64,000 bases of DNA from a candidate division FCPU426 bacterium (GCA_030637655.1 DAOWGI010000005.1:4766-68765), one strand, 5' to 3'. Shown: positions 9,304-64,000, numbered from the stretch's first letter. The notes: generated from the sequence alone by a model not told the origin. A program made the numbers and translations.

Positions 9304-9500
9304 GCATGTTTAGTCAGAATTCAGGAGTCAAAATAAGAACGTCGGAACGAAATTTTCAAGATTTAATTGTGCGGCAAAAAGTTATCAGTTTATTTTAGGC
9401 GCAAAGACGCATAACATCAACAAAACGTAGAATCTTGTTCTGATTTTATTCTGAATTCTGGATTCTTACTACTGGATACCTGAGTAGTTACTAATAAACA
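9304..9500. repeat. ~190-bp repeat element (family C), inverted copy at 63880..64000
   Basis: 9355..9470 is reverse-complement match to 63890..64000; internal imperfect terminal inverted repeats (agtcagaattcag / ctgaattctga). Confidence 0.6.
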
Positions 9501-22438: not shown

Positions 22439-22503
22439 ATATGCGAATCCTTACTTTATTATATATTTAGCTTCGGATATTTTACTGGAAACTTAATGTT
22501 GGG

Positions 22504-22675
22504 TTGTCATTCCCGAACGGTTTAATCGGCCCCGACCGGAAAAGATATATAGGGACGCATTCGGCAGGAATCTGGTTTTTTAAACCGTATCCCCGATACA
22601 AGCATTCGGGGATGACGGCGTGGAGGCTGCATTCGGGGATGACAAACAAAAAAACGCATGATTGCCATGTTCAGT
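22504..22675. mobile_element. MITE (family A composite) copy 1, long form
   Basis: gtcattcccgaa...ttcggggatgac inverted termini with tail aaacaaaaaaacgcatga...; 5 copies in window. Confidence 0.6.
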
Positions 22676-22705
22676 AATGTCTTCGGGGTTACCCCGCCCT
22701 TACAT

Positions 22706-24496
22706 TTACGCGGTTAAACGCTTTTTTTGTTTCTCAAACTGGGCTTTCATGCGTTCAGGCAGTTTGTCTTCGAACTTGTTCATGAATTCTTCAATCTCAT
22801 CCAATTCAGTAACCCAAGCTTGTTTGTCAACATTTAGTAGGGTTTGCATATCTTCCGTGCTGATGTCCAGACCAATCAGATCTATATCCTTAGGACTAGG
22901 AACAAACCCGATGGGTGTTTCTTGGCCTTGGCTTTTACCCTCAAGGCTCTCACACATCCACTTCAACGCGCGGCTGTTATCACCAAAACCCGGCCATAAC
23001 CACTTGCCTTCCGCGTTTTTACGGAACCAGTTGACATAGAAAATTTTAGGCGCGTTTTCACCCAGCTTATCACCAATATCAAACCAATGCTGCCAATAAT
23101 CCCCCATGTTATAACCGCAGAACGGCAGCATGGCAAAAGGGTCCCGGCGCAGCTTTTTCTTTACATCCAAGGCTGCGGCAGTAGGTTCTGAAGCGGCGGT
23201 GGCGCCCATATACACACCATGATCCCAATCAAAGGCTTTAGTTATCAATGGCACCACTGAGGTTCTTCGGCCGCCAAAGATAAAGATATCAATCAACACA
23301 CCGGCCGGATTCTCCCAATCCGAACAGATAACCGGACATTGACGGGCAGGTGCGGTAAAACGGGCATTGGGATGCGCGCCTTTTTCGCCGGATTCCGGTG
23401 TCCATTCGCGGCCTTTCCAATCAATACCGTGTTTGCACTCAGTTCCCATATCTTCCCACCATACGCCATTATCATCTGTATGCACACAGTTGGTGAAAAT
23501 AATATTGGCTTTCAAGGTATCCATGGCTTGAGGATTTGAAGCATAACTGGTTCCAGGGGCAACACCAAAGAACCCGGCTTCCGGGTTAATCGCGTACAGC
23601 TTGCCATCATCACCAATTTTCATCCAGGCAATATCATCACCAATGGTTTCGCATTTCCAGCCCTCTATAGCAGGCTGCATCATGGCCAGATTGGTCTTGC
23701 CACAGGCAGATGGAAAAGCAACAGCGATATGAAAGCGCTTGCCTTCAGGATTTGTCAGACGCAGGATCAACATGTGTTCCGCCATCCAGCCTTCACGTTT
23801 GGCCATGGTGGAAGCAATGCGCAGAGCCAGGCATTTTTTCCCCAGCAAAGCATTTCCGCCATAACCTGAACCAAAGGACCAGATCATGTTTTCATCAGTA
23901 AAATGTGAGATGTATTTTTTCTCAATCGGAGCACAGGGCCAGGCCACATCCTTTTGATCTTTTTCCAAGGGCGCGCCCACAGAATGCAGGCAAGGAATGA
24001 ACTCGCCCTCACTACCCAAGACTTCAAGCACTTTATCCCCTACTCGTGTCATGATATGCATATTGGCCACAACATAAGGGCTGTCTGTGATCTCAACGCC
24101 TATTTTGGAGATGGGCGATCCAATCGGACCCATGCTAAAAGGAATAACATACAAAGTGCGTCCTTGCATGCAGCCGTCGTATAGGTCTCGCATGGTTTTT
24201 TTTAATTCATCCGGATCTATCCAATTGTTGGTAGGACCCGCATCCGCCTGATTTTTGGCGGCAATGTAGGTGCGGTCTTCCACGCGTGCCACATCCGTGG
24301 GATCGGACCGGAAAAGGTATGAATTAGGATGCTTGGATTCATCCAGCTTTATGGTGGCGCCTGAATCCACCATGATTTTCATTATATTATTATATTCCTT
24401 CTCAGAACCATCACACCAATAAACAGAATCCGGTTTGCACATGCCCTCAACTTCTGAAATCCAATTTAATAATTTTTGATTTTTTGTTTTTACCAT
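22706..24496 (-). CDS. pckG: phosphoenolpyruvate carboxykinase (GTP)
   Basis: 596 aa; strong similarity pattern to GTP-PEPCK (N-terminal PEP-binding and kinase motifs). Confidence 0.9.
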   Translation of the reverse strand: MVKTKNQKLLNWISEVEGMCKPDSVYWCDGSEKEYNNIMKIMVDSGATIKLDESKHPNSYLFRSDPTDVARVEDRTYIAAKNQADAGPTNNWIDPDELKKTMRDLYDGCMQGRTLYVIPFSMGPIGSPISKIGVEITDSPYVVANMHIMTRVGDKVLEVLGSEGEFIPCLHSVGAPLEKDQKDVAWPCAPIEKKYISHFTDENMIWSFGSGYGGNALLGKKCLALRIASTMAKREGWMAEHMLILRLTNPEGKRFHIAVAFPSACGKTNLAMMQPAIEGWKCETIGDDIAWMKIGDDGKLYAINPEAGFFGVAPGTSYASNPQAMDTLKANIIFTNCVHTDDNGVWWEDMGTECKHGIDWKGREWTPESGEKGAHPNARFTAPARQCPVICSDWENPAGVLIDIFIFGGRRTSVVPLITKAFDWDHGVYMGATAASEPTAAALDVKKKLRRDPFAMLPFCGYNMGDYWQHWFDIGDKLGENAPKIFYVNWFRKNAEGKWLWPGFGDNSRALKWMCESLEGKSQGQETPIGFVPSPKDIDLIGLDISTEDMQTLLNVDKQAWVTELDEIEEFMNKFEDKLPERMKAQFEKQKKRLTA

Positions 24497-24692
24497 GGTT
24501 TCTCTTAACTCCTATCTTTTTTATCACTGCCGAACACGAATACAGCGCATTTAATTACAGAAAAACCCGAGCTAGGCAGCGAAAATATGGCAAGAGGCTG
24601 TCCATTCGGGTAATGTTAAAATTAAAGCTTTATATCATTTTTAGCTTTATATTGCAATGTTTTTCGAAAAAAAATGGCAACCAAAAAATGGC

Positions 24693-24852
24693 AACCTGTC
24701 AGTGAAGCATTTTTTCAGTTTGTCATTCCCGAACGGTTTAATCGGGAATCTGGTTTTTTAAACCGTATCCCCGATACAAGCATTCGGGGATGACAGGGTG
24801 GGGGCTGCATTCACGGATGACAAACAAAAAAATGCATGACTGACATGTTACA
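24693..24852. mobile_element. MITE (family A composite) copy 2, short form with outer TIRs
   Basis: outer gcaacctgtcagtgaagc ... gactgacatgttaca; inner unit lacks 38-nt segment present in copies 1 and 3. Confidence 0.6.
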
Positions 24853-24860
24853 AATAATGG

Positions 24861-25043
24861 GTAACAGGTCAGTGAGGCGGGAAAAACCTAATCCGGATAA
24901 ACCAGAACCAAGATTAACCGCCGATGAACGCCGATAGACGCAGATATTTATAGCTTAAAAGATAATAAAAATTTTAATCTGTATTTATCGGCGTTCTTAT
25001 TCTGACTCCTGACTCCTGAATTCTGACTACCTGAGTAGTTACG
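24861..25043. repeat. composite repeat: MITE-B-type end (gtaacaggtcagtgagg) joined to family-C-type end (ctgaattctgactacctgagtagttac)
   Basis: shares 5' 45 nt with 62883.. and 31302..31347 (rc); 3' 50 nt with 9451..9495; abuts stop of the 968-aa gene. Confidence 0.5.
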
Positions 25044-25050
25044 ATTTTTT

Positions 25051-27957
25051 TCAGAACGATTGGCCCAAACCCCACACATAGACTGTTTCTGCCGACGTGT
25101 CTGTTCGTTGCGAAACATCAAAACGGATGGTTAATAATTCTTTGCCGAGCAAGAAGGTGTGCAAACGCAAACCCAATCCGACGGAATTCCTGATATCAGC
25201 CAGACTCGATTCCATGAAATTATTACTCACTACACCGATGTCATCATACAAAACCATTTGAATGGATTTCAGCAATAAAAAATCCAACGGCCAGAGTGTA
25301 TAATTGATATTTTGTGCAATGGGAAAACGGAATTCGAAATTACACACAGCCACCTGACTTCCCAATAATTTTCCATAACGATAACCACGGATGGTCACTG
25401 AATCCGGCAACAAACCAATACCGCCGAATAAAAAGACCGGATGTTCAGGTCCCAAACTCGCCGCAACTAGAAGCCGGGAACTGAAATTCAAGGACGGATT
25501 AATAAAATCAAGGCTTTTGTAAGCCTGGGCATTGACTTGAAATAACGTGTAGTTTTCTTCCCCACCGAAGATACGATCCGCCCAAATCAGAGAGAGATTA
25601 TGCCGAAAACCATTGGTAGGCGCGTAATCCCACCAAGCAGTACTGTCATGAATCAAGGATAGGCGCAAGGTGGTAATTCTGCGGTACTGCCTTTCTTCTT
25701 CGTGCTGCCGGGTTAAATAACGAAGGCCGAATTCTGTTTCTACGCGATCATAATGAGTAAACGGCCTTACAAATCCGAGAGCGCCACCGACTTCCTCATC
25801 ATTAAATTCATCCAGCAGATCGTTGGTTTCCAAGTCAAGAATACGATAATAATTGCGGCGATAGTAAATCGCAGTAATGATGTCTACCGGGTAACTCAGG
25901 TTCGCGTAGGACAATCGAGTACTGGCTTGATACCCGGGCACAATATCACTAATTAGACTTACCAAATGATTACCTAAATAGTCACTGGCTGTGATATAGC
26001 CGCCACCGACAATGCCTTGGGAGCTGTCATAGCCTGCCAATAAAAAGAGCAGATCAGGACTAAAGCGAAATTCATACGGACGTTCATCGCGAATAACACT
26101 TTGAGCGGTTTTGGTGGTTATTTCCTGTGCCACAGTTATTTTCAGCTTTTCGTCCCTAACCCCATCTTTGAGAATTTCCTCTTCTGAAATCGGCAATGAA
26201 GGGTTTTTAATAAACCCGGCAACTACTGCTTCAGAAAGTGTGATTTCCTTTTCGTTGGAGCGTGGACGTGTTGGCATGGAAAACATCAGGTAATTACCGT
26301 CGCTATATGCCGCAAAGGCCAATTTCTTTCCGTCCGGAGAAGGCGCCGGTTGAAAAACACCTATACGGACATCTGTTAGCTGTACTGCTTCGGAAGTGGC
26401 CAAATCCATGCGATATAAATTGAAAATCGCATTGCTATCACCGGCATAATACAGATAATTGCCATCCGGTGAAAACACCGGTGTTTTGTGCTCAGTTGGC
26501 CGGCTGGTCAAGGGAACCGGCGCTTCGTTGGGATTTTCCATGGATTTCCAGATCAATTGCCAATGCGTTTCCCGTTCGCTGCTATACACAATGGCAAGAC
26601 CGTCAGGCGACCAGGCTGGGGCGTCATCCGCAAAGGTGTCATTGGTCAAGGGTTGCAAGGAGTGGGTGGTTAAGGTATATAAATATATATCACCAAACCC
26701 ATTGTTCACACCGGAAAGTGCGATCTGTTTTCCGTCCGGTGACCAGGCGGGAGAGAAAAAGGTATCAATTGGAAGATCTAAACGTTGGATTTTCCTATTC
26801 TTAACAGAGAGCAGATAAAGATGATCCTTCCCTTCTTCACGAGCAACAAAAGCCAAGTGTTTGGCATCCGGAGACCACGCCAGCGCCCGACCGCGCAGGG
26901 AAAAGTTTTCGTATTTTTTTGTGGTTACAGCATACGCGCGGGTTCCTTGTCCCCGGGGTTTGAGATAAACACGTGTTACTTGATCCCGGTTGGAAACAAA
27001 GGCCAAATAGCGTCCATCCGGAGACCAGACAGCGCCGGTGTCCATGCTGCTTCTGCCGGTCGGAGCGGAATTTAAAGGTGTGGCAAAATCCGCCGGAGTT
27101 TCCCGTTTGTTGGCTTGGACCCAATATTTCTGCTTAACCCAAAAGAGAAAATCATGATTGAATTCACGTAAGCCTAGGCCGATGGTTTCACGCAGTATTT
27201 GCGAGATGGAAATTTGGCTCTTGAATTTCTTGAAAATCGCAGACAACTTGTCCTCGCCAAAGCGATCGGCTAAATACTGGACTGCCAACTGGGATTCCTT
27301 ATAGGCCAAATACGTATCGTCCAGGTGATTGAATCCCTCCATCAAGGTCAAAGGAATCAAGCGATCGTTTAAAACAGCATCCCTAACCACCATCGCACCA
27401 ATGCTGTCCCAGTCTTGTGCTCCGTATTCCGCATACCCCTCGATGATCCAGAGCGGGATTAAGTATCCTTTGTATACGCGAAAGGATCGTAATCCCTCTC
27501 CATACAAAATATTAAATTGGAGAACGTGGATAAATTCGTGGAAAATAACCTGACGGAGCTTTTCTTTGGAATCAGGTGCCGGCAAGGCAACCCGATTTTT
27601 ATATGCTTCCGTGAAACCGCCGGTTCCAACCCCGATTACATGCGGAAGAATATTGGTTTGCTGAAAGTCGATCTGATTACGATAAATAAACAGCGGGGTT
27701 TTCAAGAGTGGTTTTTCCCGCATTAAGCGGGTACCATGTTGATAGGCAGCCTCGGCTATTTCGCAGACTTCCCTGGCCAGCGTTTCTTCTTCAGGATAAT
27801 AGTGTATCTCAAAATGATCAGTTTCAAAAACCTGCCAGTGTAAAGCACGCGTCTGTAATTTATTTTTTCCAAAATATCCGGCTGCTGCGGTGAGTGCCAA
27901 TAGCAAGACACAAATAAAGAAACTCAAGCTGATGTGAAGGAGGCTTCTCAATTTCAT
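25051..27957 (-). CDS. multidomain outer-membrane-associated protein: HExxH domain + TolB-like PD40 beta-propeller + C-terminal beta-barrel-like region
   Basis: Signal peptide; VIFHEFIHVLQ; repeated SPDG(K/R)xLAF blades; C-terminus ends in ...VWGLGQSF (terminal Phe typical of OM beta-barrels). Confidence 0.5.
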   Translation of the reverse strand: MKLRSLLHISLSFFICVLLLALTAAAGYFGKNKLQTRALHWQVFETDHFEIHYYPEEETLAREVCEIAEAAYQHGTRLMREKPLLKTPLFIYRNQIDFQQTNILPHVIGVGTGGFTEAYKNRVALPAPDSKEKLRQVIFHEFIHVLQFNILYGEGLRSFRVYKGYLIPLWIIEGYAEYGAQDWDSIGAMVVRDAVLNDRLIPLTLMEGFNHLDDTYLAYKESQLAVQYLADRFGEDKLSAIFKKFKSQISISQILRETIGLGLREFNHDFLFWVKQKYWVQANKRETPADFATPLNSAPTGRSSMDTGAVWSPDGRYLAFVSNRDQVTRVYLKPRGQGTRAYAVTTKKYENFSLRGRALAWSPDAKHLAFVAREEGKDHLYLLSVKNRKIQRLDLPIDTFFSPAWSPDGKQIALSGVNNGFGDIYLYTLTTHSLQPLTNDTFADDAPAWSPDGLAIVYSSERETHWQLIWKSMENPNEAPVPLTSRPTEHKTPVFSPDGNYLYYAGDSNAIFNLYRMDLATSEAVQLTDVRIGVFQPAPSPDGKKLAFAAYSDGNYLMFSMPTRPRSNEKEITLSEAVVAGFIKNPSLPISEEEILKDGVRDEKLKITVAQEITTKTAQSVIRDERPYEFRFSPDLLFLLAGYDSSQGIVGGGYITASDYLGNHLVSLISDIVPGYQASTRLSYANLSYPVDIITAIYYRRNYYRILDLETNDLLDEFNDEEVGGALGFVRPFTHYDRVETEFGLRYLTRQHEEERQYRRITTLRLSLIHDSTAWWDYAPTNGFRHNLSLIWADRIFGGEENYTLFQVNAQAYKSLDFINPSLNFSSRLLVAASLGPEHPVFLFGGIGLLPDSVTIRGYRYGKLLGSQVAVCNFEFRFPIAQNINYTLWPLDFLLLKSIQMVLYDDIGVVSNNFMESSLADIRNSVGLGLRLHTFLLGKELLTIRFDVSQRTDTSAETVYVWGLGQSF

Positions 27958-28021
27958 AACCCAACTACTCCTAATTCATATCGTCAAAAACACGCTCGCT
28001 TCTTTTGATAAAAAGCAATTA

Positions 28022-28969
28022 TTATATTTCGAGCCCAGGCTCCAGCCAAGAACCAAATTTCAATCCAAAAAGAAAACCTAGGATTCCATCTTTGTGATTC
28101 CGGGAACCTTGCAGTAAATGTTTGAAAAAGGCAGGACTCTTTTCCTGCAATACTTTAGGTTTTCCCTTAATTTTCGCGAGAAAAGCAGCAGTATTTACCG
28201 CATCATCTAAATTGCCTAATTGATCCACCAATCCCAGGCCTAAGGCCTGGCGTCCGGAAAAAACCCGGCCATCGGCCAGTTTTTCCAATTGTGCTTTTAC
28301 ATCCTCCGGCGGTAAATCCGTGATATTTATTCTCCTTTTCGCAGCCAGCGCTTGCGCGATCCGGTCTCCACGCGTATCCAAGATCATTTCCACGAATTGC
28401 TGATGCAGATCGTCAATCATTCCCTGCAGAAGCCGTCGCTCACGCTTATTTAATTTCCGCGAGAAATCACCTATATCTTTATATTTTCCACTTTTGATGA
28501 TTTCCATACGCAGTCCGAGTTTTTCCATTAATTGCCCGGCTTCCGGATAACGTAAAATGACCCCGATGGATCCCGTAATGCTGGCCGGATTCGCAAATAC
28601 GCGGTCCGCGGCACAGGAGATATAATATCCACCTGAAGCACATACTTCAGCCATGGAGACTACTACCGGTTTTCCCTGCCGGCGAATTTTTTGGATTTCT
28701 TTGGATATGGACTGAGCGGAAGCCAGGGTTCCGCCCGGTGTGTTGATATGAATCACGATGCCTTTGACCAGTGGCTGGTTATTCATTTTATGCAGTTGTT
28801 TGATCAAGGCGCGGTCTTCCAGAATCATACCTTGAACTTTGATTAAACCAATATGGCCTCTCCGGTTGATTTTCACGAGAGTTAGCCTGGCGAAAATAAC
28901 CAAAAGAATGAATCCGGCCAATCCTATGGCAATAAAAATAATTTCTTTTCTGTGTTTACGCATGGTCAA
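28022..28969 (-). CDS. sppA: signal peptide peptidase SppA (36K type, S49 family)
   Basis: N-terminal TM anchor; ClpP/crotonase fold with VCASGGYYIS catalytic serine region. Confidence 0.8.
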   Translation of the reverse strand: MTMRKHRKEIIFIAIGLAGFILLVIFARLTLVKINRRGHIGLIKVQGMILEDRALIKQLHKMNNQPLVKGIVIHINTPGGTLASAQSISKEIQKIRRQGKPVVVSMAEVCASGGYYISCAADRVFANPASITGSIGVILRYPEAGQLMEKLGLRMEIIKSGKYKDIGDFSRKLNKRERRLLQGMIDDLHQQFVEMILDTRGDRIAQALAAKRRINITDLPPEDVKAQLEKLADGRVFSGRQALGLGLVDQLGNLDDAVNTAAFLAKIKGKPKVLQEKSPAFFKHLLQGSRNHKDGILGFLFGLKFGSWLEPGLEI

Positions 28970-29037
28970 CTCCTGCCTATTGTTTAAACATATTTAAATA
29001 GTATACTATTCTTTCCAGCTTCGCGCTATGCTTTTAC

Positions 29038-29212
29038 TAACATGTCAGTGAACTGTGGCTAAACAAAGGTTGTCATTCCCGAGGGTTTAATCGGCCCCGA
29101 CCGGAAAAGATATATAGGGACGCATTCGGCAGGAATCTGGTTTTTTAAACCATATCCCCGATACAAGCATTCGGGGATGACAAACAAAAAAAACGCATGA
29201 CTGACATGTTAC
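29038..29212. mobile_element. MITE (family A composite) copy 3, long form with outer TIRs
   Basis: taacatgtcagtgaac...gtcattcccgag...ggggatgacaaacaaaaaaaacgcatgactgacatgttac. Confidence 0.65.
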
Positions 29213-29220
29213 CCTTTTAC

Positions 29221-30048
29221 TTAAGGATGGATTGCTTTCAAATTTTTTTTCTGCATGGCATCCAGAATTTCTTGCTGCAATTGTTTTTCGCGAGTTGTCA
29301 TCCGCGGTGCGATGTTGTCCATAAAAACGATTGCGTCTTTTTCCAACCAGATCATGCCCTTTTTAACACAATACTCCAAATATGACCGGCGATGAAAAAT
29401 ACTGGCGCTGGGATACTCCCGGTCCATAGTTCCCCAAATGGTTTTAGCGATTCTTTGCCCCAGCTTACGGCTGCGATGATACTCAATGACCGATTGCAAT
29501 TCAGTATAGGTGATCCAACCTGACCCGGACAGAAAATATACGGCATCCTCAATAAATTCCGCTTTCTGATGCTCAAAGGAATCCAATGAGAGGATGGCAT
29601 AGCGGGAGAGACCCCAAATATGATTGAATGCCGACCGAAAGTCATCCAGAGTGTGTTCCGGAGCAAAATACTTGATAGTGCGCACTTGTTTGCCGGCGTT
29701 GTCTTTCCAGGCCAGGGCAATTATTCCTTTGGCCGCGTGTGCCCGCAATAAACGACCGCGGTATTTTTTTTTAAGAGCAAAACCGCGTATGCGTTTCATG
29801 GCCAGGAAACATTTGCGGTATTCTTCCCAGGGTACGGTCCCGGTGCGTTTGCCGAGATAGTTTTTCAGCCATACACTTACGGCTTCTCCTTTTTGTTCAA
29901 GAATAAGCGCGGTTTCATCTTGGCGAATGCCGCGTACATCATAGATGACCAACCGTGAAAAGGTGATATCATGGTCTTCAGTATTAGCGGTGACAGGCAG
30001 CAAGGTAAATATCAGAATCGCCGGGAATGCCCAGTGCAGTGTTTTCAT
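29221..30048 (-). CDS. hypothetical secreted protein, translationally coupled to prfB
   Basis: Signal peptide; 4-bp overlap with prfB stop; no recognisable motif. Confidence 0.4.
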   Translation of the reverse strand: MKTLHWAFPAILIFTLLPVTANTEDHDITFSRLVIYDVRGIRQDETALILEQKGEAVSVWLKNYLGKRTGTVPWEEYRKCFLAMKRIRGFALKKKYRGRLLRAHAAKGIIALAWKDNAGKQVRTIKYFAPEHTLDDFRSAFNHIWGLSRYAILSLDSFEHQKAEFIEDAVYFLSGSGWITYTELQSVIEYHRSRKLGQRIAKTIWGTMDREYPSASIFHRRSYLEYCVKKGMIWLEKDAIVFMDNIAPRMTTREKQLQQEILDAMQKKNLKAIHP

Positions 30049-31134
30049 GATCCGGATAGCTGTTTCAAATAGCTTTCGATGAAGGGATCCAATCCTCCAT
30101 CCATAACACGTTGCACGTCCCCAACTTCGTAATTGGTTCGGTGATCCTTAATCATATTGTAAGGATGGAAAACATAGGAACGGATTTGACTGCCAAAAGC
30201 GATTTCTTTTTTTTCTCCATATAAAGTTTTGTTTTTTTGGGCTTTTTCTTCCTGGGCCCGAACATATAAACGGGCTTTTAATACCTTCATGGCATTGGCC
30301 CGGTTTTTAATTTGTGACCGGTCTTCCTGGCATTGCGCCACAATCCTGGTCGGCAAGTGGGTGATACGCACTGCGGATTCGGTTTTGTTCACATGTTGGC
30401 CACCGGCGCCGGAAGCTCTAAATACATCAATCCGCAAATCTTCATCTTTGATCTCAATCTCTATTTCATCTTCAATATCCGGAACCACATCAATCGAGGC
30501 AAACGAGGTATGCCGACGTTTGTTGGCATCAAAGGGTGAAATGCGCACCAGACGATGCACACCTTTTTCCGCCCGCATATAACCAAAAGCACAGTCACCT
30601 TCAATGGCAAAAGTAGCGGATTTAAGGCCCGCTTCTTCTCCGGGTTGATAATCCAACATAGTTATTTTGTATTTTTTATTTTCGGCCCAACGTATATACA
30701 TACGCAACAGCATCTGCGCCCAGTCTTGCGATTCTGTGCCACCGGCGCCGGGATGCACAGAGACAATGGCGGAATCACGATCATTGGGACCGGAAAGCAT
30801 TAAGCGAAATTCGCAGGCATCCGCTTCTGCCTGCAAGGTGTTTAGGCCGGATTGCAAATCCTGTTTCAGATCCGCGTCGGAGTCATCTTCCACCAACAAT
30901 TCGACTGCTGCTTTCAAATCCGCCAAGCGTGTTTGTAAGGAACTATAAAAATCAACATCACGACGGCAGCGCGAGAGTTCGGTGTTTAAAGTTTTGGCGT
31001 GCTGCTGATTGTTCCATATATCCGGCTGGGACAACTCGGTTTCTAAACGTTTCATCTGTTCCTGTTTGGCAGAAACGTCAAAGATACCTCCCGAGTTTTT
31101 CAATTCGTGTTTCCAATTGCGAAATGACTTCCAT
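30045..31134 (-). CDS. prfB: peptide chain release factor 2 with programmed +1 ribosomal frameshift
   Basis: Frame-0 ATG 31134 encodes MEVISQLETRIEKLGRYL then CTT TGA C shift site (31083..31077) preceded by GGGAGG; +1 frame continues DVSAKQ...; SPF and GGQ-containing body. Confidence 0.85.
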
Positions 31135-31160
31135 ACTCAATGTTATTCTCCTTTGGTATA

Positions 31161-31299
31161 GTAACATGTCAGTGAACTGCGGTTAAACATAAGGTTGTCA
31201 TTCCCGAGGGTTTAATCGGGAATCTGGTTTTTTTAAACCATATCCCCGATACAAGCATTCGGGGATGACAAACAAAAAAACGCTTCACTGACATGATAC
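31161..31299. mobile_element. MITE (family A composite) copy 4, short form
   Basis: gtaacatgtcagtgaactg...gtcattcccgag...ggggatgacaaacaaaaaaacgcttcactgacatgatac; directly upstream of prfB. Confidence 0.65.
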
Positions 31300-31301
31300 C
31301 C

Positions 31302-31347
31302 GATTTATCCGGATTAGCTTTTCCCGCTTCACTGATATGTTACTTTG
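31302..31347. repeat. MITE-B terminal fragment (reverse orientation)
   Basis: rc = gtaacatatcagtgaagcgggaaaagctaatccggataaatcgg, matches 5' end of 24861 and 62883 elements. Confidence 0.5.
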
Positions 31348-31389
31348 CATAGCAGTATACGCTTGACAAAGCCAGGCGTTAAAATAAAC

Positions 31390-32403
31390 TTATTCTTCGG
31401 TAAATACAACCTGATATTTTGATTTGGGCAGCAGGAATATTAGAAATGGTTGTGAACGCATCGTATTCTCTGTTTGGGTTGGTTCAATTACGTGATATTT
31501 TACAACCCATTGGTTTGCTTTTGGTTGTGATTCTTTTAAGCGGATCTCATAACCATGTCCCGGTTTGTTTCCCAAAAAGATAGCGCCGACCTGTTGCTGC
31601 TTCCAATTGACTGCCGGTATGGCAACAGATTGAATTTTAGCGCGCTGCCACAGGCTTTTAAGTTCAGTCGGTGAGGCGGCTATCAGGGTTTCCGGCTGTC
31701 GGATAGCACAAGCATCTCCGCTCCATTCTCCGGTTTGACGCACCAGTTGAGGTTTGGCAACGAGCAGATAATCCGGAGCAGCCTGTTCTCCTCTGCTGCG
31801 CGCGGCCGCAGGGGCAAGGCTCACAGGTTGAATAATCGCCCGGGAAAGTGTTTGGCGCTGTTTTTTTCCGGCTACTGAAACGTATTCGAGTTTGGGTCGA
31901 GGTAAAGGCGGCAGCGCGTCTTTATGTTTGGTAACGTATTTTTGCGGAAGTGTTTTCAATCCAGCAGATGTTTTTTTGCCGGCCTCCGACATTTTTTGAC
32001 CGGCCATACGCGGGATTTTTTTAGCAATCGGTTGTTCTTGGGCAGATAAGGTTTCTGTGGATTTGGCTTTTTTGAAATCATCCGTAGGATTTTGAACAAC
32101 CACAATCAACAGAACCACTGCTGCGGCTGCTACGGAACTTAAAGAAAGAGTTCCCCATAGATTCCAACGCCGGGCGGAAGCATATTCTTTATTTAATCGC
32201 TCCCTACACCGGGCAGGTAAATACGAAGGTGCCTCCACGCTCTGCAAAGCGCCAAGTAGGTTTAAGGTCTCGGCATATTTCCCGCATTCGCAGGTACAGG
32301 CGGTACATTCCTGTAAATGTAGGTGTACGGCCTTTTCTTCATCCGGAGTTAAGGTGTGATCTGCATACAATGGCAGCAATTCATTACATTCACGGCAATT
32401 CAT
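31390..32403 (-). CDS. anti-sigma factor (zinc-finger N-terminus, TM, periplasmic domain)
   Basis: CRECNELL...HLHLQECTACTCEC ZAS-like motif; single TM; 4-bp overlap with upstream ECF sigma gene. Confidence 0.55.
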   Translation of the reverse strand: MNCRECNELLPLYADHTLTPDEEKAVHLHLQECTACTCECGKYAETLNLLGALQSVEAPSYLPARCRERLNKEYASARRWNLWGTLSLSSVAAAAVVLLIVVVQNPTDDFKKAKSTETLSAQEQPIAKKIPRMAGQKMSEAGKKTSAGLKTLPQKYVTKHKDALPPLPRPKLEYVSVAGKKQRQTLSRAIIQPVSLAPAAARSRGEQAAPDYLLVAKPQLVRQTGEWSGDACAIRQPETLIAASPTELKSLWQRAKIQSVAIPAVNWKQQQVGAIFLGNKPGHGYEIRLKESQPKANQWVVKYHVIEPTQTENTMRSQPFLIFLLPKSKYQVVFTEE

Positions 32404-33002
32404 GATGATCTCCCCAAAATAGGATCAAGCGCGTTGCGCAACAGACGTCGCGCTCGGGACAATCTTGATTTAACTGTTCCTAGTGGAATATGGCACAAAT
32501 CCGCTATCTCCTCATACGAGTACCCCTCAATATCCCGTAAAATAGTGACTTCCCGCTCATCCGGCGGAATTTTTCCTATGGCTGCGCGAACAATTTGGGA
32601 AGTTTCACTTTGCTCGACCTTTTCTAAAGGTCCCAAACCATTCTCCTCCAACTCCAAATGACAACCTGCTGAATCTTCGGAAGGATCCTCGTTGATTGAC
32701 TGGTGCTGAAAGTACTTTCGGCGTTTTTGACTGCGCACCATATTTTTCCAAAGATTCACAGTAATGCGGTGCAACCAGGTTTTGAATTCCGATCGTCCCT
32801 CAAACCGTTTTACTGCCTGAAACGCCCGGACAAATGTCATTTGGGTAAGATCATCCGCATCCGAACGATTGCCGGCAGTTAAATTATACGCTAAGTTAAA
32901 CACATAATTTGTATGATATTTCACAAGAGCTTCAAATGCCTCGCAGTCGCCTTTGCGTGCCTGATTCACATAGCCCTTAAGTACTTCTTTAGAATCTGTC
33001 AT
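32400..33002 (-). CDS. RNA polymerase ECF sigma factor (sigma-70 family)
   Basis: Region 2 (YHTNYVFNLAYNLT...DLTQMTFVRAF) and region 4 (EIADLCHIPLGTVKSRLSRAR) motifs. Confidence 0.85.
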   Translation of the reverse strand: MTDSKEVLKGYVNQARKGDCEAFEALVKYHTNYVFNLAYNLTAGNRSDADDLTQMTFVRAFQAVKRFEGRSEFKTWLHRITVNLWKNMVRSQKRRKYFQHQSINEDPSEDSAGCHLELEENGLGPLEKVEQSETSQIVRAAIGKIPPDEREVTILRDIEGYSYEEIADLCHIPLGTVKSRLSRARRLLRNALDPILGRSS

Positions 33003-33195
33003 TTAGACCCCAATCTCCTTTTTCAGTTCATACTTGTTGGGAGCAAAATTAAAAAAAACTTTGAGTTTTGGTTATAAAACAAATAGAATAATAAAGCAAG
33101 CACGGTTTTTGCTAAATTATCCCGGATACGAAATTTCACTTGCCAATGCACATATATTTTGGTAAATAATTCTAAATCCCTAAAGGAGATTATTT

Positions 33196-33987
33196 ATGTT
33201 GCGTGTGTCAAAGCCACTGGTTGCCGTACTCTTGAGTGCGGGTATAGCCATAATTGCGGGATGTGCCGTTTTGGGGGATGTAATTCATAAACCTGACGTT
33301 CTGGTACAAGAAATCAATTCCCAATGGATTACCCCTGAACAATGGCGGCTCTTGGCAAAGATGCAAGTGAAAAACAAGAATCCCTTAACACTCTCTTTTG
33401 TTCGTGCTTCCTATTCCATCTGTGTGAATGACCAACGTGTGCAAACTAAGGTATTCACTGCGCTGCCGGTGGTCCCGCCTTATTCTGTAAAATCTTTTGC
33501 CATTCCCTTGCTGCTCAACCTGCGAGATATCCAAAAATATACTTCTGAAGAGCAGAATCTCCGGCTGCGGTTTTCCGGCCGGTTGTTTCCTACTGAAAAA
33601 TCCAATGTCTCCCCCCTGAAATTTGAATACGCAAGCACCTTGTTCATACCGCGTCTGCCAAAGTTTGTATGTAAGCAAATCAAACCTATTAAGAAAACCA
33701 AAGGCCATGTTTTTCTGTTCGAGACTAAAAACTTAAATGCTTATCCGGTCACCATTGTGAAATTGAAAGGATACGTTACTATCAAGAACAAAAAATTCAA
33801 ATTGCAGCCACTGGACAAACCGATTTCTATCAAACCATATGCTGATCAAAAACTTGCCTTCATCAGCCGAGAGCTTACCCGGGTAGCAGTAAAAAGTGAT
33901 CACCATTTGAGCTTGTTTGGTGAAATTGAATTAATTTCCCAACACGGCAGTATGATTGTACCCCTGACGCAGGAAATGAAATACTAG
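33196..33987 (+). CDS. lipoprotein with tandem LEA-2/NDR1-HIN1-like domains
   Basis: Lipobox AGC after signal peptide; two ~100-aa beta-rich repeats. Confidence 0.35.
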   Translation: MLRVSKPLVAVLLSAGIAIIAGCAVLGDVIHKPDVLVQEINSQWITPEQWRLLAKMQVKNKNPLTLSFVRASYSICVNDQRVQTKVFTALPVVPPYSVKSFAIPLLLNLRDIQKYTSEEQNLRLRFSGRLFPTEKSNVSPLKFEYASTLFIPRLPKFVCKQIKPIKKTKGHVFLFETKNLNAYPVTIVKLKGYVTIKNKKFKLQPLDKPISIKPYADQKLAFISRELTRVAVKSDHHLSLFGEIELISQHGSMIVPLTQEMKY

Positions 33988-34164
33988 GAGTGTGAGCATT
34001 TAGTCTGTTTTTTTTATGTTGTCATCCCCGAATGCTCTTATCGGGGATATGGTTTAAAAAACCGGATTCCTGCTGAAGGCGTCCCTATATATCTTTGCCG
34101 GTCGGGGCCGATTAAACCCTCGGGAATGACAACCTTTGTTTAATCACAGTTCACTGACATGTAC
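33985..34164. mobile_element. MITE (family A composite) copy 5, long form, reverse orientation
   Basis: rc of copies 1/3 including 38-nt long-form segment; outer TIR cacagttcactgacatgtac. Confidence 0.6.
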
Positions 34165-34204
34165 GCGTAAAGTATATATTATTATGAGATGGTTAATATA
34201 TGAA

Positions 34205-38959: not shown

Positions 38960-39152
38960 AAACGGACCTCCTATATACCAGGTTATTCTAATATTCTTTA
39001 TTTTAATTGTCAAATGTCAATATAGCGGTAACCCCGGACTTTAGTCCGGGGTTACCGCATTCCCTCTACCTTTTAGGGAGAGGGATAAAGGGTGAGGGTT
39101 ACCTGAATACTCCGCACTTCAGTGCGGGGATGATTTATTCATTGTTAGTTTT

Positions 39153-49870: not shown

Positions 49871-51655
49871 TTAACCGGCATAATTCCGTTTGAATATTTT
49901 ATCCAGCTCATCCCAGGAAAGGCGAAAAATATAAGGTCTTCCGTGCGGACAGGTCGGCAATCCTTTCAGGGCTCGCATTTGTTTGATGAGTGCCAGCATG
50001 CTTTCCGGTTGCAGGCGTTCTCCGGCTTTCACAGCTGCTTTGCAGGCCATGCTCTGCAAAATTTTTTCTCTAAACTTGTTTTTATCCATCAGCTTACCGG
50101 TCTCAGCCAGCCACTCAATAACCTCATTGACAATGGCAATCAAATCTCCCTGCGGAAATTGATCCGGTTGGGTTTGAATGGTAAAAGTATTGCCGCCCAA
50201 AGGTGATATTTCCAAACCCATCTCAGAAAACAGTTCCCTTGCCTCAGTGAGCAATCCGGTTTGCGAAGGCTTAAGTTCAAACGTTAAAGGCAGCAATAAA
50301 TTTTGCCGGGGCAAGTCCCGTGGCCATTGCAAAAAGGATTCATAAAGAATTCTTTCGTGAACAGCATGTTGATCCACCAGGAAAAAGCCTTGTTCATCTT
50401 GCACGGCAATATAGGTCCGGCCGACCTGACCAATGACACGCAATGCAACTTCCGCGGATGGTTCTTCCCCGATAGGGGCGCGATTAATCGCGCCCCTACC
50501 ATCTATATATGTAGCAATCGATTCTTTCACCCGGTCTTGGGACCAACCCATTGGCAAGGATTGCGGAGAATAAGTAGGGGCGCGATTAATCGCGCCCCTA
50601 CTTGGTTTTTCCTTAGATGTTGAAATATGCAATAAACTCGAGGGTTTACTGCCGGTCAGATCTCCTTGCTGCAGCACATTTTGGATAGTGGTATAAACCA
50701 AATTGTGAATACCATGTTCATCACGCAAACGCACTTCTCTTTTAGCAGGATGCACATTAACATCAACCAGATGATTAGGCATGGTGAAGAACAAATAGCA
50801 GATCGGAAAACGGCCTTCCGGTATTAGTGTCCTATAGGCTTGAATCACAGCATGCGCGATACCACGATGTTCAACCGGGCGTTGATTGATGAAAAAGCGC
50901 ATGCCGAGCCTGGTATTGCGATGATCAGAGGGATTCGCAATTCGTCCTCGAATCCAAATCCCGCCTGCTTCCCTCTCCACTGGCAGCATATTTTGCGGTA
51001 AAGCACTTCCATACAGTGTTGCCAAGCGGTCGGATAATATTTTAGTAGGCGGACAATTAAAAAGTTCACGCCGGTCTACAATCAGTTTAAAACCAACACG
51101 TTTGTGCGCAATAGCGGCCAACTCTACGACTTGTACAATATGGGATTGTTCAGTGGAATGAGTTTTCATAAATTTGCGGCGGGCCGGAGTATTAAAAAAG
51201 AGATCTTCAACAACAATCGTAGTTCCGGCCGCGCAACCGGTTTCGCCTTTTGACGTGATCTTGCCGCCGGAGAGTTTCATGCGAAATCCCACCGATTTTT
51301 TTTCCGGCCGCGTTAAAATTTCCACCTGGGAGACCGCGGCAATGGATGGCAGGGCTTCCCCGCGAAAACCCAAAGTGTCAATATTTTCCAAATCTTCCGC
51401 TTTACTGATTTTACTGGTCGCGTGCCGGGAAAACGCCAATTGGGCATCCTCCACATTCATACCCTGGCCATCGTCAGTCACGCGTATACTTTGGAAACCG
51501 GCACTTTTAATTTCCACTTCAATTCTGGTCGCCTTGGCATCCAGGGCGTTTTCAAGCAACTCTTTAACCACCGCAGCCGGACGTTCCACCACCTCGCCGG
51601 CGGCAATCAGATTGGCAACCTGATCCGATAATATTTTAATATGTGTATTGGTCAT
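49871..51655 (-). CDS. mutL: DNA mismatch repair protein MutL (with two in-frame REP insertions in linker)
   Basis: GHKL ATPase motifs (ELLENALDA, DDGQGM, GFRGEAL) and C-terminal dimerisation domain; linker contains 2x RGAINRAP encoded by REPs. Confidence 0.9.
   Translation of the reverse strand: MTNTHIKILSDQVANLIAAGEVVERPAAVVKELLENALDAKATRIEVEIKSAGFQSIRVTDDGQGMNVEDAQLAFSRHATSKISKAEDLENIDTLGFRGEALPSIAAVSQVEILTRPEKKSVGFRMKLSGGKITSKGETGCAAGTTIVVEDLFFNTPARRKFMKTHSTEQSHIVQVVELAAIAHKRVGFKLIVDRRELFNCPPTKILSDRLATLYGSALPQNMLPVEREAGGIWIRGRIANPSDHRNTRLGMRFFINQRPVEHRGIAHAVIQAYRTLIPEGRFPICYLFFTMPNHLVDVNVHPAKREVRLRDEHGIHNLVYTTIQNVLQQGDLTGSKPSSLLHISTSKEKPSRGAINRAPTYSPQSLPMGWSQDRVKESIATYIDGRGAINRAPIGEEPSAEVALRVIGQVGRTYIAVQDEQGFFLVDQHAVHERILYESFLQWPRDLPRQNLLLPLTFELKPSQTGLLTEARELFSEMGLEISPLGGNTFTIQTQPDQFPQGDLIAIVNEVIEWLAETGKLMDKNKFREKILQSMACKAAVKAGERLQPESMLALIKQMRALKGLPTCPHGRPYIFRLSWDELDKIFKRNYAG
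50470..50498. repeat. REP-like palindrome (ataggggcgcgattaatcgcgcccctac) inside mutL
   Basis: perfect palindrome; in-frame. Confidence 0.7.
50574..50601. repeat. REP-like palindrome (gtaggggcgcgattaatcgcgcccctac) inside mutL
   Basis: perfect palindrome; in-frame. Confidence 0.7.
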
Positions 51656-60914: not shown

Positions 60915-61290
60915 GAAGTATGTCTGTAATGTTTCACTCCAGGTTTTTACACTTGGCGATTTTAATCTCATTGGTTTTCAACTTTTTTTTTTTAAAAATT
61001 CTAAAACATTCACTGCCTCCTGCAAAAATAGTTTATCACAGTCACCTTTTTTATTCCGGATTTTATTTTTGTAGCCGCAGGCCGAATTGCCTCACATTAA
61101 ATGTTACAAGGCTGAAATGCCTATAGCCTAATGATATTTGTTGACTCATGAAGGATGTTAATAAACGTTTCTTTTTTTGTCATCCCTATGAATGACAACA
61201 TAAAAAAACCGACCAATTGCTCAAGCTCCTGGCACGATAAGCTGCCACTTGACAAGCCTCTTGACCCGGCATTTCAGCAACCCCTTATTT

Positions 61291-61812
61291 ATATTGTTCA
61301 GCATAATTAGAAAAACCACCGGAATTATGGGCAATTTGATCTCACGCTCCACGCTATCAGACCCCATGTTTAAAATTCTGAGAACACAGCACAGTTTCAT
61401 GAGATTTACAGCTAACATATCTGTATTTGATATGCCTCAACCAGATTCTCAGCACAAGAAAGAGTTAATTCTGTCAATAATCATAGCTCCTCACAACCAG
61501 GAATATATATTCACGTTTTTTATTAAAGTTAGTTGAAATGTACACATTAATTCTGTTCTACTAATTAGAATAACAACAGTATATGTCCTTTACTGTTCCT
61601 GTAAACTCTCATGTAATAAGGCTATTTTTTACTCAGATTTTTTAAGTAATTAATAAATTGCGACTTTAATTTGTGTGTTCTGCATAGTGATTTAGACTTT
61701 ATCTTGAGCTCTAACATCTGATCCTTTACTTTCATTTTGTGATTAATTTCTCAGCCTTCATACTTATTCCCCTGAACATTTAAATAGTTTCTCCAAACAG
61801 AGTAACACAATA
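61291..61812. repeat. ~520-bp AT-rich repeat (family D) copy A
   Basis: ~88% identical to 63203..63737 with 1-nt and 18-nt indels; no conserved reading frame. Confidence 0.65.
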
Positions 61813-62882: not shown

Positions 62883-63115
62883 GTAACAGGTCAGTGAAGT
62901 GCTGTGTTTTGTCAAATAACCCGGAAACATAATCCGGATAAACCGGAACTAAAAAGGTATATTCACCGCAGAGGACGACACATGGATTGTTCTATGTAGA
63001 GACGCGATTAATCGCGTCTCTACAGTTTTTATCCCATCTTTCGGAGGCAAGTCGCGTCCCTGGGAAAAAATAAATTAGCAGACCATATGTCTTTCTCGCT
63101 TCACTGATATGTTAC
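62883..63115. mobile_element. MITE (family B) with TGTAACAGGTCAGTGAAG / CTTCACTGATATGTTACA termini, containing a REP
   Basis: 17-bp TIRs; internal 45 nt shared with 24861 and 31302 copies; REP at 62996..63023. Confidence 0.55.
62996..63023. repeat. REP-like palindrome gtagagacgcgattaatcgcgtctctac
   Basis: identical unit to thrS 3' REP. Confidence 0.7.
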
Positions 63116-63202
63116 AAATGTTTTGAAAAAGTAGGTGGGGTTAGTTCACTTTAATGTGAGAGTAAACACTTGAGTCAGAATTAAAAAAAATCATATTTAT
63201 CT

Positions 63203-63737
63203 TGTTTAGCATAATTGGAGGCCAGACCAGGATTATGGGCAATTTAATCGCATGTCCCACAGTATCAGGCCCCATGTTTAAAATTCTGAGATCACAGCAC
63301 AGTTTCATGAGATTCACAGCTAGGATTTTAACCTCAGCTAACACATCTGCATTTGATATGTCTCAACCAGATTCTCAGCACGAGAAAGAGTTAATCCTGT
63401 CAATAATCTTAGCTCATCAACAACCAGAAATATATATTCACGTTTTTTATTAAAGGTCAGTTGAACTGTATCCCTTAATTCTGTTCTACTAATTAGAATA
63501 ACAACAGCATATATCCTTTACTGTTATTGTAAACTCTCATGTAATAAGGTTATTTCTTATTCAGATTTTTCAAGTAATTAATAAAATGCGACCCTAATAT
63601 ATGTATTCTGCATAGTGAATTAGACTTTATCTTGAGCTCTCACATCTGATCCTTTTCTTTCATTTTGTAATTAATTTATAAACCTTCATACTTATTTCCC
63701 TAAACATTTAAATAGTTTCTCCAAACAGAGTAACAAC
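63203..63737. repeat. ~520-bp AT-rich repeat (family D) copy B
   Basis: direct repeat of 61291..61812. Confidence 0.65.
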
Positions 63738-63879
63738 AAGTAATATTCGATCTCTAATGATAATTAGAACTTGAATTACTTGAATATTGTACTCTATCTC
63801 TTATTATATCAATTGAATTTGTGCTTAGTTAAAATAGAACTTTAAATTGGATTATAACTATTTTTATCACAAATTTATG

Positions 63880-64000
63880 CAACTACTCAGGTATCCGGTA
63901 GTCAGAATTCAGAATAAAATCATAACAATATTCTACGTTTTGTTGATGTTATGCGTCTTTGCGCCTAAAACAAACTGATGACTTTTTGCCGCACAATTAA
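63880..64000. repeat. family C element, inverted partial copy (runs off window)
   Basis: reverse complement of 9355..9470. Confidence 0.6.

Follow-up and report, generated by a model that had tools for sequence, protein, structure and literature searches.

We analyzed 64,000 nt of DNA from a candidate division FCPU426 bacterium (GCA_030637655.1 DAOWGI010000005.1:4766-68765), here called the window, in which five diverged repeat copies, c1 to c5, lie between 22.5 and 34.2 kb, four on the plus strand and one on the minus strand. Judging from their sequence, these repeats are copies of a small non-coding transposon that is nested and non-autonomous. We put at about 75% the probability that each copy is a 160-182-bp miniature transposable element with inverted repeats (MITE) carrying as a passenger an outward-facing pair of hairpins, equivalent to the ends of an ssn cassette without its gene, and that this hairpin dimer spread here as MITE cargo. 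The inner core is best read as a miniature of a cassette for ssn, encoding a 98-aa GIY-YIG protein, with the gene removed, because matching hairpins flank ssn elsewhere, deletion intermediates occur and a 27-nt module is shared. The MITE shell and its cargo, a CGTC-tagged repetitive extragenic palindromic (REP) sequence or Ssn-related motif (SRM), would both be of known kinds, the new point being a member in a candidate phylum, and the repeat cluster around housekeeping genes would represent transposon debris with a known hairpin class, not a new regulatory system.

The outer shell as a mobile element

Each copy combines the core with an outer shell made of imperfect 17-bp terminal inverted repeats, (G)TAACATGTCAGTGAAC ... 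GTTCACTGACATGTTAC, and short linkers. The terminal arms of c3 and c4, 12-17 nt long, show 94-100% complementarity. The 17-mer GTAACATGTCAGTGAAC occurs 11 times in the window at up to three mismatches against 0.13 expected from shuffles, and GTCATTCCCGA, counted with its variant, occurs 12 times against 1.0 expected. A sequence-only reading of this DNA had proposed five copies of a nested MITE with 17-bp termini, the last copy reversed. All five were found when the sites were read and aligned; a terminal repeat of that length exists, but the string quoted for it has 18 letters and the termini are degraded in c1, c2 and c5.

Three copies are flanked by target-site duplications. With the element ends set as TAAC...GTTAC for the scoring of flanking 9-mers, c2 is bordered by AAAAAATGG (24683-24691) and AAATAATGG (24852-24860; 8/9 identical, p ~1.5e-4) and c4 by TTGGTATAG (31153-31161) and TTTGCATAG (31344-31352; 7/9, p ~1.8e-3), the latter holding only if the unit is extended to its outermost terminus at 31343. 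The flanks of c3, GCTTTTAC (29030-29037) and CCTTTTAC (29213-29220), agree at 7/8 positions. Random pairs from the window reached at least 7/9 with a probability of 0.0018 and 8/9 with one of 0.00015.

Occupied and empty sites were compared as the sequence-only reading had suggested. Searching with a 275-aa protein encoded between c3 and c4 led to relatives that are likewise named candidate division FCPU426. The gene order GH99 ... LEA_2, extracytoplasmic function (ECF) sigma, anti-sigma, prfB, 275-aa protein, sppA is kept in one contig (L124) and in a further pair (L125/L126), where the 275-aa protein is 77% and 58% identical, respectively. Alignment of the three testable intergenic regions revealed that c3, c4 and c5 are absent from both L124 and L125, with shell and core missing together, and L124 retains a single GCTTTTAC, without the element, at the c3 site. 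The pckG neighborhood is not syntenic in the relatives, and the empty-site comparison covers c3 to c5. Neither the 17-mer nor hairpins with GTC tags were found in ~50 kb of non-redundant DNA from relatives (L115-L118 and L124-L126).

The shell appears to be an element in its own right because the same termini enclose other contents: they bound a 233-bp unit on the plus strand (62883-63115) and open a second family, B, marked by TAATCCGGATAAACC, at 24861 and, in reverse, at 31343. Inside the 233-bp unit are TAATCCGGATAAACC and a palindrome, TGTAGAGACGCGATTAATCGCGTCTCTACA; its ends form inverted repeats of 28 nt, and its flanks agree at 6/9 positions. Terminal inverted repeats, duplications of 8-9 bp, empty orthologous sites and reuse of the termini on other cargo sustain the nested MITE as first proposed, but the core is not private to this element, being a pan-bacterial hairpin pair. 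The copies are distinct and not assembly duplicates, because their shells are only 62-76% identical in pairwise comparison (cores, 92-93%), their flanks differ and four independent metagenome assemblies (L112, L113, L122 and L123) agree, carrying the same copies at the same loci. Several of these contigs break off within a copy, as is to be expected where a repeat is genomic.

Complete elements measure 160-182 nt and lack an open reading frame (ORF); two to three related shells are also present in the 64 kb. An intact left terminus is kept only by c3 to c5; that of c2 has three mismatches and that of c1 is beyond recognition. On the right, c1 and c5 have degenerate termini. The old and degenerate c1 (22471-22673, plus strand) is a long-form copy whose left shell has become unrecognizable and whose right terminus, at 22657-22673, reads CATGATTGCCATGTTCA. 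Short-form c2 (24692-24851, plus) is whole, with termini at 24691-24707 and 24835-24851, and its duplication adjoins the start of a family B element (24861-24917, plus), which opens with the terminus GTAACAGGTCAGTGAGG followed by TAATCCGGATAAACC and has an uncertain right end. Long-form c3 (29038-29212, plus) is also whole, its termini (29037-29053 and 29196-29212) including 12 nt of perfect complement. The transposed unit of short-form c4 (31162-31343, plus; absent from L124 and L125) runs from a left terminus (31161-31177) through the core to an internal right terminus (31283-31299), beyond which comes a family B end of 44 nt (31300-31343), reversed relative to that at 24861 and closing with a terminus at 31327-31343. 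Long-form c5 (33988-34165, minus) begins at the stop codon of the gene at 33196-33987; its terminus at 34149-34165 has three mismatches, its other shell end is degenerate and no clear duplication is apparent.

ORFs and Pfam matches identify the neighboring genes as encoding a protein with a type IX secretion system (T9SS) tail, PckG, a Peptidase_MA/PD40/Omp85 protein, SppA, PrfB, an ECF sigma/anti-sigma pair and LEA_2, in keeping with the gene context first described. Copy c1 separates the pckG stop from the start of the gene for the T9SS-tail protein, c2 lies 5' of pckG, c3 5' of sppA (Peptidase_S49) and c4 5' of prfB, while c5 separates convergent genes. The region around pckG (22440-25050) is rearranged relative to L115-L118 and L125, where pckG precedes a DHOD-type reductase pair and lies ~8 kb from the Peptidase_MA gene; both breakpoints in the window fall on c1 and on c2/family B.

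This setting had suggested that the copies contribute promoters or terminators, a proposal for which we found no support. In its strongest form, it would make the copies mainly cis-regulatory, retained as promoters for the T9SS cargo gene, pckG, sppA and prfB or as terminators or stabilizers for the genes upstream, which we consider improbable. All copies are intergenic, each lying 5' of one gene and directly 3' of another, and their cores are better conserved than their shells. The terminus, moreover, bears an outward CTGACA resembling a -35 box, with a promoter-like match of 9/12 reading toward prfB (31172-31145) and one of 10/12 at c5; a local promoter effect may exist at prfB. Against this, promoter-like sites are not enriched (31 versus 28.2 +/- 4.2 expected), with the proviso that promoters of this phylum may not follow the sigma-70 consensus, the sole terminator-like hairpin with a T-run inside an element lies antisense to genes, and syntenic relatives carry the same genes without the elements. 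In other genomes, among the matches listed, hairpin dimers show no orientation bias toward flanking genes (18 opposite, 14 same) and occupy co-directional, convergent and divergent gaps in a ratio of 32:15:11. Orientation to transcription, on which four of four informative window copies agree, was dropped as evidence since other genomes are unbiased.

Further repeats accompany these elements. The 233-bp unit at 62883-63115 is flanked by two segments of ~500 bp (61286-61807 and 63194-63735) that are 84-92% identical, and the 61-64-kb region contains only odd, low-complexity ORFs, with no Rfam match at E<=1. The palindrome GTAGGGGCGCGATTAATCGCGCCCCTAC, of which TGTAGAGACGCGATTAATCGCGTCTCTACA (62995-63024) is a variant, occurs twice, 102 nt apart (50472-50499 and 50574-50601), inside a 594-aa ORF (49871-51655, minus). 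Another short repeat, at 9446-9491, 24997-25042 and 63879-63892 (minus), ends in ACCTGAGTAGTTAC and is preceded by units of the TTATTCTGA/TTCTGA type; its GTAAC-type end resembles the MITE terminus and a Syntrophus shell, GTAACTATTCAG. Positions 39020-39135 of the window contain three small, mutually different hairpins (GGTAACCCCGGACTTTAGTCCGGGGTTACC; CCCTCTACCTTTTAGGGAGAGGG; CCGCACTTCAGTGCGGGGATGA), in place of which the otherwise 99.5% identical strain L122 (56-89) has a single GTAG-type palindrome, GTAGGGGCACGGCATGCCGTGCCCCTAC.

The hairpin pair in the window and in other genomes

The core consists of two REP-type hairpins with outward GTC tags, joined by a short GGTTT/AAACC spacer hairpin. 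Hairpin 1 has the form TGTC-ATTCCCGA/TCGGGAAT-CTGG and hairpin 2, on the other strand, GTC-ATCCCCGA/TCGGGGAT-AYGG. The tags-outward dimer arrangement is found in all five copies, as are the unpaired tags, which read TGTC ahead of hairpin 1 and, on the opposite strand, (G/A/T)GTC ahead of hairpin 2. The loops measure 8-9 nt, and the spacing is ATTCCC-N12/13-GGGAAT. The inner hairpin ATCCCCGATACAAGCATTCGGGGAT of the sequence-only reading occurs five times in the window at up to three mismatches, exactly in four copies and with two mismatches in the minus-strand copy, and never in shuffles.

Two forms of the core exist, as had been noticed. The long form (c1, c3 and c5) includes a 38-nt segment and spans 110-111 nt, while the short form (c2 and c4) spans 73 nt, lengths that replace the 150 bp first given for the inner unit. 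In the 111-nt core of c1 (22506-22616), hairpin 1, beginning with GTCATTCCCGA, is split by this segment (22530-22567) and followed by the spacer and hairpin 2 (22589-22616). The 73-nt core of c2 (24722-24794) has hairpin 1, spacer hairpin and hairpin 2 in succession, and that of c4 spans 31197-31269. The 110-nt cores of c3 (29072-29181, plus) and c5 (34021-34130, minus) contain the segment at 29095-29132 and 34070-34107, respectively. The 38-nt segment is a later insertion splitting hairpin 1. Markers group c1 and c2 against c3, c4 and c5, yet the segment occurs in both subfamilies, a distribution that would need recombination or repeated site-specific insertion. Only c1 and c2 have an extra 27-nt module after hairpin 2 (GGCGTGGAGGCTGCATTCGGGGATGAC at 22617-22643 in c1; 24795-24821 in c2). 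In unrelated genomes (L011 and L024), we also observed partial repeats, arranged in tandem, of the 3' arm of hairpin 2 together with the tag (repeated ..CATTCGGGGATGAC), to which this module is the counterpart in the window.

Structure prediction and covariation agree with a paired core. As single-stranded DNA (ssDNA), the short element has a predicted fold of -36 kcal/mol (z = -9), and cores are predicted to fold into three small hairpins or one long hairpin; with the 38-nt segment breaking hairpin 1, the core has z = -1.8. Across 56 diverse cores, whose hairpin 2 is held constant by the search pattern itself, pairing is seen in 95% of cells and nine pairs vary on both sides, comprising five of eight pairs in hairpin 1 and all four pairs between the two tails. 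The covariation score was 0.182, compared to 0.078 for shuffles and at most 0.029 for slid registers.

For its distribution, hairpin 2 was scanned in one genome per species as a 27-nt pattern with 24 specified bases. Exact matches were found in at least 111 stretches from at least 64 species-level assemblies labeled with about ten phyla, including Geobacter, other Desulfuromonadales, Syntrophus, Nitrospirota, Schekmanbacteria, Omnitrophota, Planctomycetes, Calditrichaeota, Ignavibacteria, Coxiellaceae, Vibrio and others. A partner hairpin (GTCAT-stem-loop-stem) lies 35-100 nt upstream, tags outward, at 91/118 hits among the matches listed. A metagenome scan for the lineage-specific spacer plus hairpin (32-nt query) retrieved only three contigs. 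A viral or plasmid vehicle is not indicated because the core had no match in plasmid and phage collections and the hairpin was present in only three IMG/VR contigs. Exact look-up of the window's PckG and P0001 returned no record.

In other genomes, these dimers are often nested as well. Among the matches listed, 34% lie inside exact inverted repeats of at least 9 nt, compared to 4.4% of mismatched controls, and at least ten unrelated shells surround them, among them GTAACTATTCAGCA (Syntrophus) and GAGCCTCTTGCAAAAGT (Geobacter and others). The flanks of two Syntrophus copies, read by eye, suggest 9-bp duplications. One shell, (GAGC)CTCTTGCAAAAGT, surrounds the dimer in L012, L041, L042, L050, L083 and L106, contigs labeled Nitrospirae, Pseudomonadota, Geobacter and Deltaproteobacteria; such sharing means either that the composite has spread horizontally or that contigs were mis-binned.

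The frequency of nesting raises an alternative in which the dimer prefers palindrome centers, here those of pre-existing MITE copies, so that each copy received its core independently. It would account for the many shells around dimers elsewhere and fits the earlier description of dimers as 'inserted within' palindromes (Di Nocera, De Gregorio & Rocco 2013, PMC3733652). Small hairpins have also entered the loop of hairpin 1 independently in other genomes (L017, L062 and L103), and the 38-nt segment of the window, whose distribution is incongruent with the subfamily markers, is a further case. We nevertheless judge it unlikely for the window: c3 to c5 have the same shell-core junctions and linkers, as do c1 to c4 on their right side; the window has no otherwise identical shell that lacks a core; and the empty sites of relatives are without both shell and core.

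Link to ssn cassettes and proposed mechanism

The reading of the dimer as gene-less cassette ends draws on loci where the same hairpin types adjoin an ssn gene of the cd10448-type GIY-YIG group (L121, L130/L131, L132 and L096); an ORF in a further contig (L026) matches Pfam GIY-YIG at 1.5e-16. In L132, from a deltaproteobacterial metagenome-assembled genome, ssn stands between hairpin 1 on its 5' side and hairpin 2. This hairpin 1 and the 36 nt of hairpin 1 plus flanks from the c4 core match at 35 positions in a 37-column alignment with two end-gap columns, while hairpin 2 agrees with that of the window in 32/37 columns. Neighboring gene-less dimers in L132 have spacers that retain the ssn 5' leader (GGTTTTGAAGT) and last codons (TTGAYCAAGTAA), and joining the flanks of the cassette creates a junction closely similar to the window spacer GGTTTTTTAAACC. 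The surrounding region (L132, 3800-4760) is a Neisseria-like mosaic array: within 1 kb, ssn is flanked on either side by tandem hairpin dimers, at least five in all, each after a CCGAATGCCCCCC half-hairpin.

L130 and L131, which share a metagenome project with the window's strain (L130 also the sample of L112), contain the arrangement hairpin-ssn-hairpin with outward tags, and the 27-nt module of c1 and c2 recurs 5' of the L130 cassette, matching the reverse complement of the c1 sequence. L121 also has the hairpin-ssn-hairpin arrangement: a dimer with the exact 32-nt query pattern, its hairpin 2 differing at a few bases, lies ~30 nt upstream of an ssn-like gene (583-1035, minus). This gene is itself interrupted, right after its ...LYIGV codons, by an insert of ~160 nt containing another dimer of the same family; a nuclease gene is disrupted here by its own putative target repeat.

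Published enzymology allows a mechanism to be proposed. Ssn proteins of 94 aa, also of the GIY-YIG type, bind the 28-nt Neisseria repeat NTS, CGTCATTCCCGCGMAVGCGGGAATCYRG, and cut a few nucleotides upstream of it in single-stranded DNA only, not in RNA; within NTS, cutting depends critically on the GTC and binding on the C that follows the palindrome (Nat Commun 2025, PMC11893778). For the window, a DDE-type transposase encoded outside it would have recognized the shell ends and inserted the shell into intergenic DNA, duplicating 8-9 bp of target, with the dimer spreading in this genome as MITE cargo. In ssDNA exposed during replication, repair or DNA uptake, each strand would present one hairpin in cleavable orientation; a cognate Ssn would bind this hairpin and nick the strand a few nucleotides 5' of its GTC tag, so that the copies might act as strand-specific break or recombination sites, and the same enzyme may have first multiplied the dimer.

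Several observations weigh against the combined reading of MITE shell and cassette-derived cargo. Target duplications are missing from c1 and c5 and imperfect in the other copies. The 64-kb window contains neither a transposase or autonomous element with these termini nor an ssn homolog: a profile of 120 homologs (--max) gave nothing at E<=10, and GIY-YIG queries likewise found none. The L130 ssn contig differs from the window in G+C content (37% versus 43.6%) and shares no termini with it; an origin from the same organism was considered and rejected on these grounds, and the contig probably belongs to another organism. Hairpin 2 has the GTC, but its palindrome is followed by an A where a C is critical for binding; the ssn-flanking hairpins of L130 and L132 share this A. 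The published SRM pattern, HGTCWYN(0-2)YYVSBRHN(0-5)WNVSBRGN(0-2)RNCYNB, matched none of the copies, even with the loop relaxed to 12 nt, because the hairpins have 8-9-nt loops and an A-T rather than C-G top stem pair. Cleavage, transposition and any cellular effect of the copies are putative.

Two remaining explanations fare worse. A classical REPIN population multiplied by a REP-associated tyrosine transposase (RAYT; IS200/IS605 type) would share the design of two inverted REP hairpins with a spacer, dispersed intergenically, but is very improbable given the (C/T)GTC tag in place of the RAYT-associated GTAG, the GIY-YIG rather than Y1 transposase gene between such hairpins and the window's separate GTAG-type palindromes, which are very different in sequence from these hairpins. 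A family of structured non-coding RNA genes, for which the strong compensatory changes and stable folds could speak, is hardly credible: the window had no Rfam match at gathering thresholds, with none at E<=1 in 22.3-34.4 kb except one chance Xist match and none in 60.9-64 kb, the unit is symmetric on both strands without orientation preference to genes, the protein partner described in the literature works on ssDNA, not RNA, and three copies persist in the long form despite its disrupted hairpin 1.

The loci can be arranged as a series from the hairpin-ssn-hairpin cassette through deletion intermediates that keep the last ssn codons to the minimal dimer and, finally, the dimer in many shells. 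From this, we tentatively derive a broader proposal, which we regard as possible though more doubtful than not: the 73-nt dimer would be the gene-less miniature of a mobile Ssn cassette and the CGTC-REP counterpart of the REPIN/RAYT system, with Ssn multiplying the repeats, now or in the past, and dimers tending toward palindrome centers, including those of unrelated MITEs. If true, nested elements would use two mobilization chemistries, with near-identical sequence across phyla, and Ssn would be more than a restriction-like ssDNase, acting in repeat propagation. Should the series hold genome-wide, it would show where one of the two great superfamilies of REPs came from. The link from cassette to dimer and the repeated nesting are the leads of most value.

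Comparison with known repeat systems

By tag and layout, the core belongs to the CGTC-tagged REPs, a class that also includes Neisseria NTS/dRS3 and the SRMs. CGTC-tagged REPs have an 8-9-bp stem starting with A-T, form mostly head-to-head heterodimers with conserved spacers, include Neisseria dRS3 and Rickettsia RPE-4/6 and, according to the 2013 description, 'lack a dedicated transposase' (PMC3733652); in 2025, hairpins of this class were identified as substrates of Ssn nucleases (PMC11893778). The window core resembles them in its (C/T)GTC tag, 8-bp A-T-first stem, outward heterodimer and self-complementary conserved spacer, and also in its intergenic location and occurrence over several phyla. 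It differs in having loops of 8-9 nt, not 4-5 nt (the paper lists loop-length exceptions), tails of CTGG/AYGG instead of CCA and a host from a candidate phylum not covered at that time. In Halothiobacillus neapolitanus, CGTC-REP dimers are nested in a 41-bp palindrome (PMC3733652). Unlike this palindrome, the one enclosing the window dimers has target duplications and empty sites, and for this reason appears to be itself a transposon.

Relative to Neisseria dRS3 (ATTCCC-N8-GGGAAT), later extended to NTS (PMC11893778), the window repeats have the wider N12/13 spacing. Hairpin 1 carries GTCATTCCCG and CGGGAATCTGG exactly as in the NTS consensus, together with GTC and the C after the palindrome. 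The layout hairpin-gene-hairpin has been described for ssn, whereas gene-less cassette dimers and nesting in MITEs are not described there (PMC11893778).

The REPIN-RAYT system (Bertels & Rainey 2011) offers a parallel in design, being an inverted hairpin doublet that resembles the ends of a single-gene cassette and is presumably multiplied in trans by the product of that gene. REPINs differ by their GTAG tag, and their enzyme is an HUH/Y1 transposase rather than a GIY-YIG protein; they are, moreover, described as vertically inherited and lineage specific, in contrast to the near-identical window hairpin across phyla. The closest composite analog is QMITE2 of Coxiella burnetii (PMC5896051), a 150-190-bp MITE with 21-29-bp terminal repeats, variable 7-11-bp direct repeats and a REP palindrome as its core. 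That core is described as a GTAG-type REP targeted by IS1111, with no GIY-YIG link reported, and its terminal repeats are unrelated to those of the window; the two elements have in common a REP palindrome carried inside a MITE.

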